NCBI GenBank assembly: GCA_016795285.1
Contig: JAEUIC010000019.1
Coordinates: forward strand, 10,442-74,441
Length of the DNA: 64,000 nucleotides
Reading direction: 5' to 3'
From: Planctomycetota bacterium
Lineage (GTDB): Bacteria > Planctomycetota > B15-G4 > SIAN01
The notes beneath the pieces were generated by a model. It was given only the letters and a program-made list of their open reading frames with translations. It did not search any database and had not been told where the DNA came from. The translations under genes were made by a program, and so were the position numbers. Positions 32,523-44,031 of this stretch are shown piece by piece; the stretch's first letter is position 1; the number at the start of each line of letters is the position of its first letter.

Positions 32523-33359
32523 TCAGACGAGGTAGGCCTTGCGGCGGAACTTGAGGAGCGCGAGGGCCAGCGCGATGGCGCCGACCCAGGCGAGGACCTG
32601 GAGCGAATCGGCGGCGGGCAGCAGCTCGAGCTCGTAAGGGCGCGCCAGCGTCGTGTAGCGCTCGTCGCCGGAGAGGCGGGCGAGCAGCGTGTAGACGTGG
32701 TGGAGCAGCGTGTAGCGCGCCATGGTGCCGGGCATCGACGCCGCGAACGGCTCCCAGACGAAGAGCAGCACGAGGCCGACCAGCAGCGGCCACTTGATCA
32801 CCACCGACAGCAGCACGAAGACCGCGCTGTACGCCACCATCGAGAGCGCCATCCCGGCCAGCGCCGTGCCGAGCAGCGGCAGGTCGACCCACAGCGCCTC
32901 GCCGCCCATCTGCCCCACCGTCGCCAGGTAGAGCACCGCGTAGGCCGCGCCGAGCAGCAGCGACGACGTCACCACCGCGGTGAGCCAGCGACCGAGCAGC
33001 AGCGCGCTGCGCGGCACCGGCCGCGTCAGCAGGTAGGGCAGCGTCTTGCCCTCGATCTCCTCGCCGATCGCCCCGCACCCGACGAAGAGCGCCACGATCA
33101 GGTTGATGGCGGGGAAGCAGAGGTTGGTCAGCACCGCGATGAAGCCGACGCCTCCCTTGTAGCCCGCCCCCTCGCGCCAGAGCTCGAGCCCCGGCGCGAT
33201 CAGCGGCAAGAGGCAGAGCAGCGCCAGCGTGGCGCCGCGCCGCCCGCGCAGCAGCGCGAGCCCCGAGACGCGCACCGTCACGGCGATGCCGTCGAGCAGC
33301 CCGCGCCGCGGCGGCCGCTCAGGCGACCAGGTAGTCGAAGATGGCTTGGAGGTTGTCAT
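32523..33359 (-). CDS. ABC-2 type transporter permease (NosY-like)
   Basis: Six-TM hydrophobic protein. Start taken at MTTSKPSS (33359), overlapping the upstream ATPase stop. An alternative start lies at 33395. Confidence 0.65.
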   Translation of the reverse strand: MTTSKPSSTTWSPERPPRRGLLDGIAVTVRVSGLALLRGRRGATLALLCLLPLIAPGLELWREGAGYKGGVGFIAVLTNLCFPAINLIVALFVGCGAIGEEIEGKTLPYLLTRPVPRSALLLGRWLTAVVTSSLLLGAAYAVLYLATVGQMGGEALWVDLPLLGTALAGMALSMVAYSAVFVLLSVVIKWPLLVGLVLLFVWEPFAASMPGTMARYTLLHHVYTLLARLSGDERYTTLARPYELELLPAADSLQVLAWVGAIALALALLKFRRKAYLV

Positions 33360-34326
33360 CGGTCGATTCGTATTCCCGCACCACGATCCAGCCATCGGCT
33401 GCCACGCGCGCCAGCCGGTCGAAGAAGGGCCCCGGCTCCTTCACCTCGAAATGCGCCTCGTTCGCGCCGACCCGCACCGACAGCACGCCCGGCTCCTCGA
33501 GCAGCAGCCGCGCCAGCCCGCGCGGATCGTCGCTGACGACGCGCACGTGGTGCGGACGCTGGTCGAGCGCGCGGCGGATCTCGTCGATCGTCCCCTCGGC
33601 CAGCACCTGGCCGCGGTGCACGAGCGCGATGCGGCGCGTCATCTTCTCGACCTCGTGCAGCACGTGGCCCGACACGATCACCGTGTGGCCGAGCGCGCCG
33701 AGCTCGCGCACGAGGTCGATGATCTCGCGCCGGCCGACCGGATCGAGGCCGTTCAGCGGCTCGTCGAGCACGATCACCTCGGGGTCGTGGGCGATCGCCT
33801 GCGCGATGCGCAGCCGCTGCCGCATCCCCTTGCTGTAGGCGCCGACCTTCTTCTCGGCCGCCGCGGCGAGGCCGACGCGCTCGAGCGCCCGCTCGGTCCG
33901 CGCCTTCGCCTCGCCCGCCGCGAAGCCGCCGTAGTGGAGCAGCGCGAAGAGGTGGCGCCGCCCCGAGAGGTGGTCCCAGAGCTGCTCGTGCTCCGGCGAG
34001 TGCCCGATGCGGCCAAACAGCGCCGCGTTGGCGAACGGCTGCGCGCCGAGCACCTGCACGTCGCCCTGGCTCGGCGCCATCTGGCCGGTGACCAGCCGCA
34101 TCAGCGTCGACTTGCCGGCGCCGTTGGGGCCGAGCAGGCCGGTGACGCCCGGCTGGAAGGCGAGCGACACGTCGTTCAGCCCGATCACCGGCCCATACCA
34201 GTGGGAGACGCGCGCGAGCTGCACAGGCGCCGCCCCGCTCACGCCGGCCGCGCCGCTCGCTGCGTTGCTGGCCGCACCGTGGGCCGCCTCGCCCGTCGCC
34301 GCGCCGTTCGACTCGTTCGCGCTCAT
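33319..34326 (-). CDS. ABC transporter ATP-binding protein
   Basis: Walker A GPNGAGKSTL, signature YSKGMRQRL, Walker B VIVLDEP. ATG at 34326 overlaps the upstream permease stop (ATGA). Confidence 0.85.
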   Translation of the reverse strand: MSANESNGAATGEAAHGAASNAASGAAGVSGAAPVQLARVSHWYGPVIGLNDVSLAFQPGVTGLLGPNGAGKSTLMRLVTGQMAPSQGDVQVLGAQPFANAALFGRIGHSPEHEQLWDHLSGRRHLFALLHYGGFAAGEAKARTERALERVGLAAAAEKKVGAYSKGMRQRLRIAQAIAHDPEVIVLDEPLNGLDPVGRREIIDLVRELGALGHTVIVSGHVLHEVEKMTRRIALVHRGQVLAEGTIDEIRRALDQRPHHVRVVSDDPRGLARLLLEEPGVLSVRVGANEAHFEVKEPGPFFDRLARVAADGWIVVREYESTDDNLQAIFDYLVA

Positions 34327-35306
34327 CGGGTGCCCGCCTCGACGACCACGTCCTGCCGGCGCAGCACCGAGACGATCACCAGCAGCGACGCGCCGCACCA
34401 GCAGAGCACCGAGGTGGCCGCCTGCAGCGGCGTCGACGACGCGAAGATCTTCACCGCCTCGAAGACTCCCTCGAGGTTGCCGCGCACCGCGCCGTCCGCC
34501 TCGCTGGTCGCCTTCTCGAAGAGGCCACCGATGTCGTAGAGGTGGTAGCCGAGCGAGAAGAGCGCGTCGTTGATGGAGACGGCCGCCAACGCCGAGACGC
34601 CGCGATGGCTGCCCGCCATCGAGGTGAACGACGGCAGCAGGATCACCAGCGAGAACCAGATCAGCCCGGCGAACATCGGCCGCCGGCAGATCGAGGAGAC
34701 CGCGAGGATGGTGAGCGAGTAGACCAGCACCACCGCGCCGTTCTGCACGATGATCGGCACCAAGTGGGGCAACGCGGCGGTGAACGCCCCGTCGGCCGGA
34801 TCGGAAAGGACCCCCATCAGCCAGAGCAGCAGGTTCGGCACCAGCGTGAACATCGCCATGAACCAGCCGATGATCCCGAGCTTGCCGAGCACGTAGTCGC
34901 CGAGCGTGAGCGGCCGCGACAGGTAGAGCGGCAGCGCACCGCTCGCGCGATCGCGGGCGATCAGCCCCGAGCCGAAGATCACCGCGTAGACCATCAGGAA
35001 CATCGAGTTCAACCGCGTCAGCGCCGGGTACTGGATCACCCGATAGGGCGCGAGCTGGTCGAAGATCGCGAAGGTCTCGACCGGCAGGAAGTTGGGCCGG
35101 AAGTAGAAGAGGTAGTTGAGCAGGAAGAGCAGCGCCGTCGGGACGCAGCTCGCCGCCATGAAGCCGCGCAACGAGAGCGTGAGCAGCCAGCCGCCCTTGG
35201 TGGCGAGCGCGTTCTTCACCCCCATCGCGACGATCGGCGCGGCGCGGAACGCGCGACGCTTCAGCGTGCCGTCCCAGCGGCGGTAGGAGCGGTCGTAGAC
35301 CGGCAT
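34323..35306 (-). CDS. ABC-2 type transporter permease
   Basis: Real start MPVYDRSYRRWDG... at 35306 (ATGA overlap with the upstream ATPase stop). The 5' part of listed ORF 34323..36431 is the out-of-frame shadow of the ATPase gene. Confidence 0.7.
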   Translation of the reverse strand: MPVYDRSYRRWDGTLKRRAFRAAPIVAMGVKNALATKGGWLLTLSLRGFMAASCVPTALLFLLNYLFYFRPNFLPVETFAIFDQLAPYRVIQYPALTRLNSMFLMVYAVIFGSGLIARDRASGALPLYLSRPLTLGDYVLGKLGIIGWFMAMFTLVPNLLLWLMGVLSDPADGAFTAALPHLVPIIVQNGAVVLVYSLTILAVSSICRRPMFAGLIWFSLVILLPSFTSMAGSHRGVSALAAVSINDALFSLGYHLYDIGGLFEKATSEADGAVRGNLEGVFEAVKIFASSTPLQAATSVLCWCGASLLVIVSVLRRQDVVVEAGTR

Positions 35307-43300: not shown

Positions 43301-43891
43301 CGAGGACGGCGGCGGCGTCGGATGGGCGCCCGCCTCGGGGGGCAGCGGCTCCTCGGCGGTGATCAGGCGGGCGAGGCCGAAGTCGACCAACTTCACCTGG
43401 CCGCGCTCGTCGAGGAAGAGGTTGGCCGGCTTCAGGTCGCGGTGGACGATGTTGCGCCCGTGGACGAAGGCGAGCGTCTCGGCGACTTGGCGGCCGACCT
43501 CGCGCACCACCGGTTCGGGCTGCGGCCCCTCGAGCTCGAGGCGGCTCTGCAGGCTGCCGCCGGTGAGGAGTTCCTGCACGATGTAGTGGACCCGGCGATC
43601 GCCGCCGAGGCGCAAGCTGCCGATCTCGTAGACGCGGGCGATCCCGGCGTGGCCAGCCCCGAGCCCGACCCCCGCCTCGCGCTTGAAGCGGCGCACGATC
43701 TGGGCGTCGGGGGCGAAGCTCGGGTCGAGGACCTTGAGCGCGACCTCGTCGCCCGAGCGCAGGCCGCGGCGTCGCCCGACGACCGTGGCGCGGTAGACGG
43801 CGCCCATCGCGCCGGCCCCGAGGAGGCCGCGGATGCGGTAGCCGCGGAGCTCCTCCGGAAGGGCGAGAAAACGGGTGGCGGGGCTTGGCAT
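40352..43891 (-). CDS. Ser/Thr protein kinase fused to a P-loop ATPase domain and a long TPR-like C-terminal region
   Basis: Kinase subdomains: GLLGAGAMGAVY...ALKVL...HRDLKPANLFL...DFGLA...APE. Downstream Walker A GEPGVGKTRLVD. About 500 aa of Ala/Leu-rich helical repeats. ATG at 43891; a GTG at 43933 is also possible. Confidence 0.85.
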   Translation of the reverse strand: MPSPATRFLALPEELRGYRIRGLLGAGAMGAVYRATVVGRRRGLRSGDEVALKVLDPSFAPDAQIVRRFKREAGVGLGAGHAGIARVYEIGSLRLGGDRRVHYIVQELLTGGSLQSRLELEGPQPEPVVREVGRQVAETLAFVHGRNIVHRDLKPANLFLDERGQVKLVDFGLARLITAEEPLPPEAGAHPTPPPSSGATSSGRFLGTVAYAAPEQLAGAPATPQSDLFALGVVLYEMAAGHHPWARERDLGYDAYVAALQTRDPTPLTELRPELSYFLERIVQALLERDPAARLASAEQAAAAFVGAERSDFWRTATAPVSLQVSAGRRRLAVRRATRLLGRQHELALLVDEARAAFAGSLRRVVLEGEPGVGKTRLVDALADRLERVGPQGFFLVASGRESGQPLEPLRELLADACGLSEAAAAGPAAVDARAEQQLRELLPERPEAQQLLRAFLREGAGKAARQLAPLRAALVELFVAITRQAPLLLVLDAAEHADGETLRTLDALVAEAQRAPILLVITRAHELPTERTLAALHASLAKGSMRLALVDPPREAFTTLAHDLGFDEAHVERVAARLHEVAAGSAGNAVELASWLRSRGKLDTLAAKKTAIRSLPPLLAERYAQRLARLGSVERELLETTAVLGADVREQVLRDMLALPAAEFDLRLAPLLAEGGPLQRIAGELRFREPLFQRHVLHATALERRQQTHRLAARYYQRELAQPSPPPRAALKAAWHADLGGERTILAATLRGATRVLELEGSPERAWRLVASAVAAARVAPPDERLLAQALVLRGGLAHRLGRREEERATWTEAAKLSAQLDDAGVRSHAFHGLGRLASRTGRFLAAESYLRTADEAAQRSARGQGAERAFILLDLAEVLLWSGDEERAAQALEQAEQVIDAGAPVASIGRYFKERGNLLLELERFDEAEQAFSQGRSIVRGPALRPLHRALVLGSARLLRELCDWDKARRACEVARKSAASDLDLRHLAQAEYVRADIEARSGDPDAAFKPYVRSLRLALRVDDGYLAVSALGSLSLLYRWERFSGHSIDRAIRCARRAIARAHSLAVGRLEARGLAALALCYRDMKRGSWALAIARKALREGSAAGIERRRAAEIYWVHGLIAGELGHSEAAAKSLEEARRRTERRLLGVASPAVRTRMSERDPLLRAIHGEERRR

Positions 43892-44031
43892 CACGCTCGA
43901 GCCAGGGTGGCGGTCGCCTTGACTCGACCGCACGGCTCCTAGAGACTACCGCGCCCTTTCTCGGGCACTAAGGAACAGCTCGACCGTCCTCGACCATCCG
44001 CTCGGTCCGGTCACCGGTCGGTCGCGACGCC

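Follow-up and report, generated by a model that had tools for sequence, protein, structure and literature searches.

The DNA analysed here is a 64,000-nucleotide stretch (the window) from a metagenome-assembled genome of an uncultured Planctomycetota bacterium (assembly GCA_016795285.1, contig JAEUIC010000019.1, positions 10,442 to 74,441). Between positions 32523 and 43933 it carries a string of eight co-directional minus-strand genes. From upstream to downstream these encode a STAND-type Ser/Thr protein kinase, a PfkB-family sugar kinase, an orphan protein, a radical S-adenosylmethionine (rSAM) enzyme and two ATPase-permease pairs of ATP-binding cassette (ABC) exporters of the ABC-2 type. 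An original prediction, made from the letters alone, had read the density of this string as a sign of one co-translated maturation and export unit. We consider it probable that the compact cluster is rather a composite of three modules placed head to tail than one pathway.

The open reading frames (ORFs) were checked by translation, and all eight are open without internal stops. Their GC content at third codon positions (GC3) is 0.94-0.97, compared to 0.46-0.58 at second positions (GC2), a contrast that distinguishes these genuine frames from the many spurious ORFs. The GC content of the window is approximately 73% and uniform over the region. NCBI gene calls for the rSAM enzyme (384 aa), the orphan (593 aa) and PfkB (306 aa) agree with the ORFs used here. 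Independent gene calls in the closest relative (locus L112) provided an identical junction pattern, including a permease 2 of 278 aa. The number, orientation and extent of the genes given in the original prediction are thus confirmed.

The junctions listed there were likewise recovered base by base from the sequence. The kinase and PfkB genes overlap by 4 nt in an ATGA (40352-40355), and the PfkB and orphan genes by 4 nt in a GTGA (39435-39438), while orphan and rSAM genes are separated by 16 nt (37641-37656). Among the exporter genes, ATPase 1 and permease 1 share a single base within a TGATG (35306), and permease 1 and ATPase 2 overlap by 4 nt in an ATGA (34323-34326). ATPase 2 and permease 2 overlap out of frame by 41 nt, assuming that permease 2 starts at the ATG at 33359. 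As had been noted, the only real intergenic gap is found between the rSAM and ATPase 1 genes (172 nt, 36314-36485). Locus L001 exhibits the junction pattern of the window except that its kinase and PfkB genes do not overlap but lie 2 nt apart. Overlaps of 1 and 4 nt are generally the most frequent type of junction in bacterial operons. The start of the kinase gene is ambiguous by about 13 codons (GTG at 43933 or a start near 43894). All features are collected in Table 1.

Table 1. Features of the gene string, its intergenic regions and related loci. Positions refer to the window unless a locus (L number) is named; a dot denotes a feature without strand.
Feature	Position	Strand	Description
STAND-type Ser/Thr protein kinase	40352..43933	-	Pkinase 33-314, AAA_16 353-535, TPR 845-1156 (Pfam/NCBIfam); GC3 0.95
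PfkB-family sugar(-phosphate) kinase, 1-PFK/hexose-kinase type	39435..40355	-	306 aa; start overlaps kinase stop
Lineage-restricted orphan	37657..39438	-	593 aa; GTG start overlaps PfkB stop; AlphaFold2 model
Radical SAM enzyme	36486..37640	-	384 aa; PF04055 + PF13186 (SPASM)
ABC ATPase 1, DrrA-like with DrrA1-3_C	35306..36313	-	PF00005 + PF13732
ABC-2 permease 1 (ABC2_membrane_2)	34323..35306	-	327 aa; PF12679 38.3 bits; ATG shares a base with ATPase 1 stop
ABC ATPase 2	33319..34326	-	PF00005; paralogue of ATPase 1
ABC-2 permease 2	32523..33359	-	278 aa from ATG 33359; PF12679 43.9 bits; 41-nt overlap also in L112 and L001
Divergent region kinase/cysS	43934..44031	.	98 nt; presumed promoter region of the string (gene map)
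rSAM/ATPase 1 spacer	36314..36485	.	172 nt; plastic junction of the string
Convergent intergenic region closing the string	32312..32522	.	Four 21-mer copies; long nested hairpin
ORFs in the rSAM/ATPase 1 spacer of relatives	L089 11151-11805; L091 ~1661-2272; L001 ~11198-11578	-	rSAM/ATPase 1 spacer
FG-GAP gene between ABC pairs	L086 15316-16983; L088 5572-7233; L095 ~14584-15810; L111 10940-12568	-	
Examples of glycosyltransferase clusters with rSAM relatives	L041 8819-9877; L066 6980-8734; L057 10397-11566		

Profile searches with Pfam confirmed the predicted domain identities: a kinase with Pkinase, AAA_16 and TPR regions, a PfkB kinase, an rSAM enzyme with a SPASM-type C-terminal domain and two pairs of a DrrA-like ATPase and an ABC2_membrane_2 permease. 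The SPASM-type domain carries five conserved cysteines rather than the seven of the full motif, and no cut-off of an NCBIfam SPASM subfamily was reached.

The kinase possesses intact VALK, HRDLKPAN, DFG and APE motifs as well as a Walker A motif (GEPGVGKT) in its AAA_16 domain. It reaches the cut-off of no curated NCBIfam equivalog (PknB-like model, 191 bits versus 450), and no kinase family of that kind can be named for it. Orthologues with 46-75% identity adjoin cysS in L001, L002, L005, L007, L089, L096 and L108. The neighbouring PfkB protein matches PF00294 with 103.7 bits (cut-off 25.8), and the motifs GGKGLN and GVGSGD can be read in its translation. Since it remains below the function-assigning cut-offs of TIGR03168 (162.8 versus 216.4 bits) and TIGR03828 (148 versus 292 bits), no substrate can be assigned; NCBI labels it 'hypothetical protein' (MBL8841730.1). 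Kinase and PfkB genes are adjacent and co-oriented in L001, L005, L007, L089, L096, L108 and L112. The pairing is broken in L002, where the kinase occurs without PfkB, and in L086, where PfkB occurs without the kinase.

The third gene had been described as a secreted orphan of unknown fold, for which structure prediction was proposed. The orphan status stands, as neither Pfam, NCBIfam nor PADLOC gave a match. The fold can now be predicted: an AlphaFold2 model based on a 16-sequence alignment reached a predicted local distance difference test (pLDDT) score of 80.3 and a predicted template modelling score of 0.80, compared to a pLDDT of 47.8 with an earlier 3-sequence alignment. The model consists of a transmembrane helix (residues 2-26), a beta-sandwich (47-178), a disordered linker (181-232) and a multi-bladed beta-propeller (235-590). 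A Foldseek search against the PDB returned only generic propellers, such that no function can be transferred. The family profile found nothing meaningful among PDB sequences, and WD40 models of Pfam were matched by one family member. The family is tiny, with 19 representatives among 1.84 billion proteins, and it evolves fast in comparison with its neighbours: identity is 58% where the rSAM enzymes are 90% identical, and 27-42% where these are 66-81% identical. Two length classes exist (~540-590 aa and ~860-900 aa; compared for the window, 37657-39438, L001, 7351-9972, L002, 7380-9965, and L108, 7540-10224). The long forms contain about 300 additional residues between beta-sandwich and propeller, at the place of the disordered linker in the window protein. 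Across 16 homologues no Cys, Ser or Lys-type target is invariant, invariance being limited to A, G, P, L and R residues. Due to the positive N-terminus followed by the transmembrane helix, the modelled propeller is expected to be extracytoplasmic and would probably face the periplasm, where it may act as a partner or sensor together with the two kinases.

For the rSAM enzyme, the core motif CX3CX2C (C62-x3-C66-x2-C69) is conserved across 33 homologues. The C-terminal part follows the pattern C300-x12-G313-x4-C318(C319)...C359-x2-C362, i.e. an abbreviated, 'twitch'-like SPASM domain. In the same 33 homologues its conserved cysteines are C300, C318, C319, C359 and C362, with none after C362, and the full 7-Cys SPASM motif (CX9-15GX4C ... 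CX2CX5CX3C ... C) is absent. The twitch pattern C-x9-15-G-x4-C ... C-x2-C, known from the BtrN structures, predicts one auxiliary [4Fe-4S] cluster. No NCBIfam cut-off was reached (best 76 versus 400 bits; PqqE 31 versus 381; MftC 43 versus 265), in agreement with the original view that this is not a known arrangement for a ribosomally synthesised and post-translationally modified peptide (RiPP), pyrroloquinoline quinone or mycofactocin, nor of the anSME or QhpD kind. Members of two more distant rSAM clades likewise stayed below every NCBIfam cut-off. The NF033640 model (N_Twi_rSAM) gave 71.1 bits versus 170, with a match limited to the core. An RRE or PqqD-like domain was not matched by Pfam in any of the eight proteins of the string, and the spacers of the loci examined contained no conserved small same-strand precursor ORF.

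The solved chains nearest to the rSAM profile were PqqE (best, E = 4e-12), BtrN, DesII, BlsE and viperin; the alignment with BtrN (E = 2e-11) covered the core as well as the Cys region of the C-terminal part. Relatives at ~30% identity occur in a conserved cluster with genes for a GT2 glycosyltransferase, a carbamoyltransferase, and GT9 and GT4 glycosyltransferases. It was found in 59 loci (L026-L084), whose hosts include Chloroflexota, Nitrospira, Noviherbaspirillum, Acidobacteriota and cyanobacteria; it apparently represents a glycan-modification cluster, so far uncharacterised, to which a twitch-type rSAM enzyme belongs. Several features suggest that the rSAM enzyme of the window acts on a small molecule, probably a sugar-like one, and not on a peptide or protein: its twitch pattern, the lack of both an RRE domain and a precursor, the kinship with BtrN, DesII and BlsE and the context of the ~30% relatives. 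It would be a stand-alone enzyme with one BtrN-like auxiliary cluster, as predicted from its cysteine pattern.

Two further roles for this enzyme were considered and rejected. Sulfatase maturation in the manner of anSME does not fit the incomplete SPASM Cys set, and sulfatase genes adjoin the rSAM gene in L008 and L022 only; sulfatases are very numerous in Planctomycetota, which further counts against it. A B12-binding rSAM protein was considered as a conserved partner of the twitch rSAM enzyme or of the ABC module, as one is encoded nearby in L086, L110, L111 and some loci of clade 2; however, these proteins share only 22-30% identity across clades, and none is found in the window.

In both exporter pairs a gene with the Pfam family ABC_tran lies next to one with PF12679. 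ATPase 1 scores 223 bits with TIGR01188, below the cut-off of 312. In reciprocal tblastn searches the two ATPases cross-matched each other's orthologues in relatives at ~33-41% identity. Orthologues of permease 1 (38-94% identity) were found in the same lineage only. An opposite-strand FG-GAP gene separates the two pairs in L086, L088 and L095, and also in L111, a distant locus with a permease of 32% identity. Because of this gene, the ABC pairs need not form one four-gene transporter. In L110 the FG-GAP gene adjoins one ABC pair, and in L002, a locus free of ABC genes, it is found between the rSAM and arginase-family genes; it is absent from the window and from several crown lineages. The arrangement ABC-FG-GAP-ABC may represent an older module, and the pairs would export a substrate that is possibly linked to the FG-GAP protein.

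To see how far the string holds together, we collected 112 loci and annotated them by tblastn with the window proteins and by ORF clustering. All close homologues come from metagenome-assembled genomes of Planctomycetota, in agreement with the source of the window and contrary to the Myxococcota origin that the original prediction had implied. The whole string recurs only at an rSAM identity of at least 73% (L001, L005, L089, L096, L112; partial contigs e.g. L007/L094 and L091). These loci also share cysS, the arginase-family gene, a gene for a CarboxypepD_reg protein and a lysine-2,3-aminomutase (LAM)-like rSAM gene. Because unrelated flanks recur along with the string, what is conserved is a whole chromosomal block. 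The full string was never found beyond the range of these unrelated flanks, as would be looked for in a single operon.

At rSAM identities of 59-66% the parts of the string occur separately. Locus L002 contains cysS-kinase-orphan-rSAM followed by the opposite-strand FG-GAP and arginase-family genes, with neither PfkB nor ABC genes. L088 has the rSAM gene and two ABC pairs with FG-GAP between them, followed by the arginase-family gene; kinase, PfkB and orphan are missing. L086 (60% identity), the deepest branch of clade 1 in a neighbour-joining tree, lacks kinase and orphan; it has PfkB-rSAM, a B12-rSAM gene and two ABC pairs on either side of FG-GAP, followed by the arginase-family gene. L100 shows orphan-rSAM-ABC. 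In L108, cysS/kinase-PfkB-orphan directly precedes a SulP gene on the opposite strand, and rSAM and ABC genes are lacking. In the sample from which L108 and L085 originate, the rSAM gene and ABC pair 1 are ~27 kb apart on one contig; L085/L110 and L108 would fit one genome, judged by shared sample, GC content and divergence level only. The rSAM gene itself was also found in unrelated contexts (L003/L004, L008, L085/L099, L087). In a clade of 17 loci at 41-46% identity its neighbours are housekeeping genes that vary by locus, and in ~25 sampled loci it stands alone, without the orphan. The kinase-PfkB-orphan group always adjoins cysS. These loci establish that the modules are separable. The original prediction had itself proposed a neighbourhood analysis and named lack of conservation in related genomes as what would speak against a functional unit, and the string indeed falls apart at this divergence.

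The gap between rSAM and ATPase 1 varies from 48 to ~1170 nt in close relatives. In L001, L005, L089 and L091 it harbours an ORF on the opposite strand whose product is a small, secreted and highly charged protein rich in Arg, Asp and Glu. In L112 (rSAM 90% identical) it holds a called gene of 97 aa on the opposite strand (11251-11544, minus strand), and in L088 a TPR gene. No long spacer is present at this place in the window, L096 or L097.

The favoured composite would be built as follows. Module A would comprise a cytoplasmic STAND Ser/Thr kinase, PfkB and the membrane-anchored beta-propeller protein and adjoin cysS; module B would be the stand-alone twitch-type rSAM enzyme with its small, probably sugar-like substrate; module C would consist of the two paralogous ABC-2 exporter pairs. 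Since opposite-strand ORFs part rSAM from ABC genes and the two ABC pairs from each other in relatives, the uninterrupted eight-gene run is probably the product of recent deletions and not of ancestral operon design. The deletions would have occurred inside an old, slowly decaying block that reaches from cysS through the arginase-family gene to the LAM-like rSAM gene. Modules A and B on the one side and module C on the other side would be separate transcription units. Each family taken by itself belongs to a known kind, although uncurated or confined to the lineage, and nothing found here points to a novel type of system. A literature search found no described system of this composition.

Several observations weigh against this reading. 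The string is denser than the remainder of the window: 5 of the 8 gaps of at most 20 nt among its 26 same-strand junctions fall on the seven junctions of the string (one-sided Fisher p ~0.014, computed by hand on a crude GC3-based gene map). Its tight junctions are kept in close relatives, which fits co-transcription and translational coupling inside kinase-PfkB-orphan-rSAM and inside the four ABC genes. The orphan and rSAM genes are adjacent in at least five sub-lineages, and both the PfkB-rSAM adjacency and the rSAM-ABC linkage already exist in L086. Because of the L086 linkages and the recurrent orphan-rSAM adjacency the modules may be functionally coupled to some degree.

Part of this evidence can be read as a sign of a partial pathway, in which PfkB, the twitch rSAM enzyme, the ABC-2 pumps and perhaps the propeller protein make, modify and export a phosphorylated or modified sugar or an envelope glycoconjugate under regulation by the kinase. 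We regard this as unlikely. It draws on the order PfkB-rSAM-(...)-ABC-ABC in the deepest clade-1 locus, on the rSAM-ABC linkage also seen in L088 and L100, on the sugar- and nucleotide-acting enzymes (BtrN, DesII, BlsE, viperin) among the nearest solved rSAM relatives and on the glycosyltransferase/carbamoyltransferase surroundings of the ~30% relatives. Displaced rSAM genes adjoin envelope genes in L003 (UDPGP, Ddl, DapB, AlgX/SGNH-like) and in L087 (YkuD, LpxA/C/D, Gfo/Idh/MocA). However, every component is seen without the others at similar divergence, the opposite-strand ORFs split the rSAM/ABC and ABC/ABC junctions in relatives, and inherited gene order explains the pattern given that unrelated flanks are equally conserved. 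The permeases are moreover of the ABC2_membrane_2 type (NosY/GldF-like) and not Wzm-type glycan exporters (PF01061), and the contexts in clade 2 are housekeeping genes that differ by locus. The idea can be extended to an undescribed lineage-specific pathway, in which the rSAM enzyme, PfkB, the propeller protein and the ABC-2 pumps make and export a radically modified phosphorylated sugar or glycoconjugate under control of the STAND kinase, the separations being secondary scattering of a regulon whose members continue to function jointly; we consider this quite unlikely.

We find it very doubtful that, as the original prediction had it, the rSAM/SPASM enzyme matures the secreted orphan or an unseen peptide for subsequent export, with the pumps and kinases in auxiliary roles within a single pathway. 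The short distance of 13-35 nt between orphan and rSAM genes in the window, L001, L002, L005 and L112, the almost constant position of the tiny orphan family upstream of this rSAM gene and a weak profile similarity of the enzyme to PqqE, a tungsten-enzyme maturase and StsB would agree with maturation. Yet the enzyme has neither the full 7-Cys SPASM motif nor an RRE/PqqD domain and reaches no maturase cut-off, the orphan offers no invariant Cys, Ser or Lys-type target, and no conserved small precursor ORF was found. The partners also occur apart, the orphan without rSAM in L108 and the rSAM gene without orphan in the ~25 loci mentioned. The N-terminal transmembrane or signal segment of the orphan would point to Sec rather than ABC export. 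An anti-phage defence island around the STAND-like kinase, a viperin-like rSAM enzyme and ABC/AAA ATPases appears extremely improbable. Here PADLOC provided domain-level matches: the kinase domain matched PD-T4-6 and mad6, the core of the rSAM enzyme matched pVip (45-47 bits) and the ABC ATPases matched mad3. These cover generic catalytic domains only, and PfkB, orphan and permeases gave no match. The rSAM enzyme carries a twitch/SPASM-type C-terminal domain, which viperins are not known to have. The neighbourhood is a stable syntenic core with cysS, the arginase-family gene and infB/rbfA instead of a variable island, and its GC content is uniform. Given matches limited to generic domains and the core-genome setting, we rejected a defence system.

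The composite of three modules thus remains the reading that we favour, and the earlier interpretation is partly supported: gene string and junctions stand, while density as an argument for one co-translated unit gives way to a neighbourhood that is conserved only in close relatives, together with its unrelated flanks. A dense run of start-stop-overlapping genes is easily read as one pathway, and the present case, in which comparative genomics points to recent deletions as its probable origin, calls for care when function is predicted from neighbourhoods in poorly sampled phyla. The uncurated twitch-type rSAM family present across this group of Planctomycetota is of modest interest.

The string is bounded by the divergent cysS gene (44032-45504, plus strand) and the convergent arginase-family gene (31034-32311, plus strand). 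A scan with the sigma-70 promoter consensus found no promoter-like site, including in the region 43934-44031, and is uninformative at 73% GC. The same applies to a scan for intrinsic terminators, which returned one plus-strand site (32319-32338), fewer than shuffled sequences give. An Rfam scan of 31000-45000 with E values up to 1 provided no match. In the rSAM/ATPase 1 spacer of the window these consensus scans detected neither promoter nor terminator, and its folding revealed no exceptional RNA structure (z = +1.86). The convergent region contains four copies of the 21-mer GGTGGCGGGGTTGATTCTTCC (one with a single mismatch), two in tandem on each strand with spacings of 25 and 43 nt. When folded, 32312-32522 forms a single extended hairpin of nested type (-146 kcal/mol, z = -8.6). 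The 21-mer was found nowhere else in the window nor in any fetched locus; the region is probably a genome-specific bidirectional terminator or an element similar to repetitive extragenic palindromes.

Around the string, the second rSAM gene of the window (24220-25617, minus strand) is LAM-like with Radical_SAM and LAM_C domains and is part of the synteny block; its counterparts lie near the arginase-family gene in L001, L002, L005 and L088. CarboxypepD_reg proteins are encoded on both sides of the block (28065-31217, plus strand, 1050 aa; 45568-46785, plus strand, 405 aa) by genes that are syntenic in close relatives, and infB/rbfA lie near the locus. In L086 the arginase-family gene adjoins a gene for a pyruvoyl-dependent arginine decarboxylase (20353-20901 and 19274-20131, both minus strand). 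From this adjacency we suspect the 'arginase' of the conserved flank to be an agmatinase that serves polyamine synthesis and has no relation to the string.

A comparison with known systems was made module by module; taken together, the string most resembles a BtrN-type twitch rSAM enzyme placed next to a kinase/sugar-kinase pair similar to Pkn4-PFK and to generic ABC-2 exporters. With the rSAM/SPASM maturases (PqqE, anSME, MftC, QhpD and the sactipeptide and ranthipeptide synthases) the rSAM enzyme shares the radical SAM core and a Pfam SPASM match. However, it is devoid of the CX2CX5CX3C block and the terminal Cys, such that at most one auxiliary cluster is predicted, and neither an RRE/PqqD domain nor a precursor gene accompanies it; the curated cut-offs are missed widely. 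Closer is BtrN, the 2-deoxy-scyllo-inosamine dehydrogenase of butirosin synthesis (PDB 4M7T/4M7S), with which it has in common the CX3CX2C core and the C-x12-G-x4-C...C-x2-C pattern. This likeness is at profile level only, and the cluster content of the enzyme described here is predicted from sequence. In contrast to BtrN, members of the present family begin with a helical extension of ~50 residues, which is conserved, and carry the additional invariant C319, and no aminoglycoside cluster surrounds the gene.

The exporter genes resemble those of the PmtABCD, GldAF and NosFY kind, which combine DrrA-like ATPases with PF12679 permeases. PmtABCD genes follow the order ATPase-permease-ATPase-permease, the same order as found here. 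None of the cut-offs for named exporters in NCBIfam (PmtABCD, GldAF, NodIJ) was reached, the scores and cut-offs being 15.7/220 for PmtD, 97/350 for PmtA, 177/403 for GldA and 31/288 for GldF. The two pairs differ from four-gene exporters also in being split by the FG-GAP gene in four other loci.

The kinase has the domain order Pkinase - AAA_16 - TPR in common with STAND kinases similar to PknK, AfsR and MalT, while no DNA-binding output domain was detected in it. As a pair, kinase and PfkB recall the Pkn4-PFK system of Myxococcus xanthus, which is described in PMC2887360, citing Nariya & Inouye 2002, as an operon in which PFK is a substrate of Pkn4. In both cases a Ser/Thr kinase gene adjoins a co-oriented gene of the phosphofructokinase type. 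The protein kinase described here differs in carrying AAA_16 and TPR regions. In the string its gene precedes that of the sugar kinase. The sugar kinases also differ in type, as the enzyme here is PfkB/1-PFK-like and that of M. xanthus is reportedly a PfkA-type 6-phosphofructokinase. By analogy the Ser/Thr kinase would regulate the PfkB enzyme. Neither the trio nor the rSAM family overturns current knowledge; the kinase-PfkB-propeller trio next to cysS may, however, be a second example of kinase control over a sugar-phosphate kinase.

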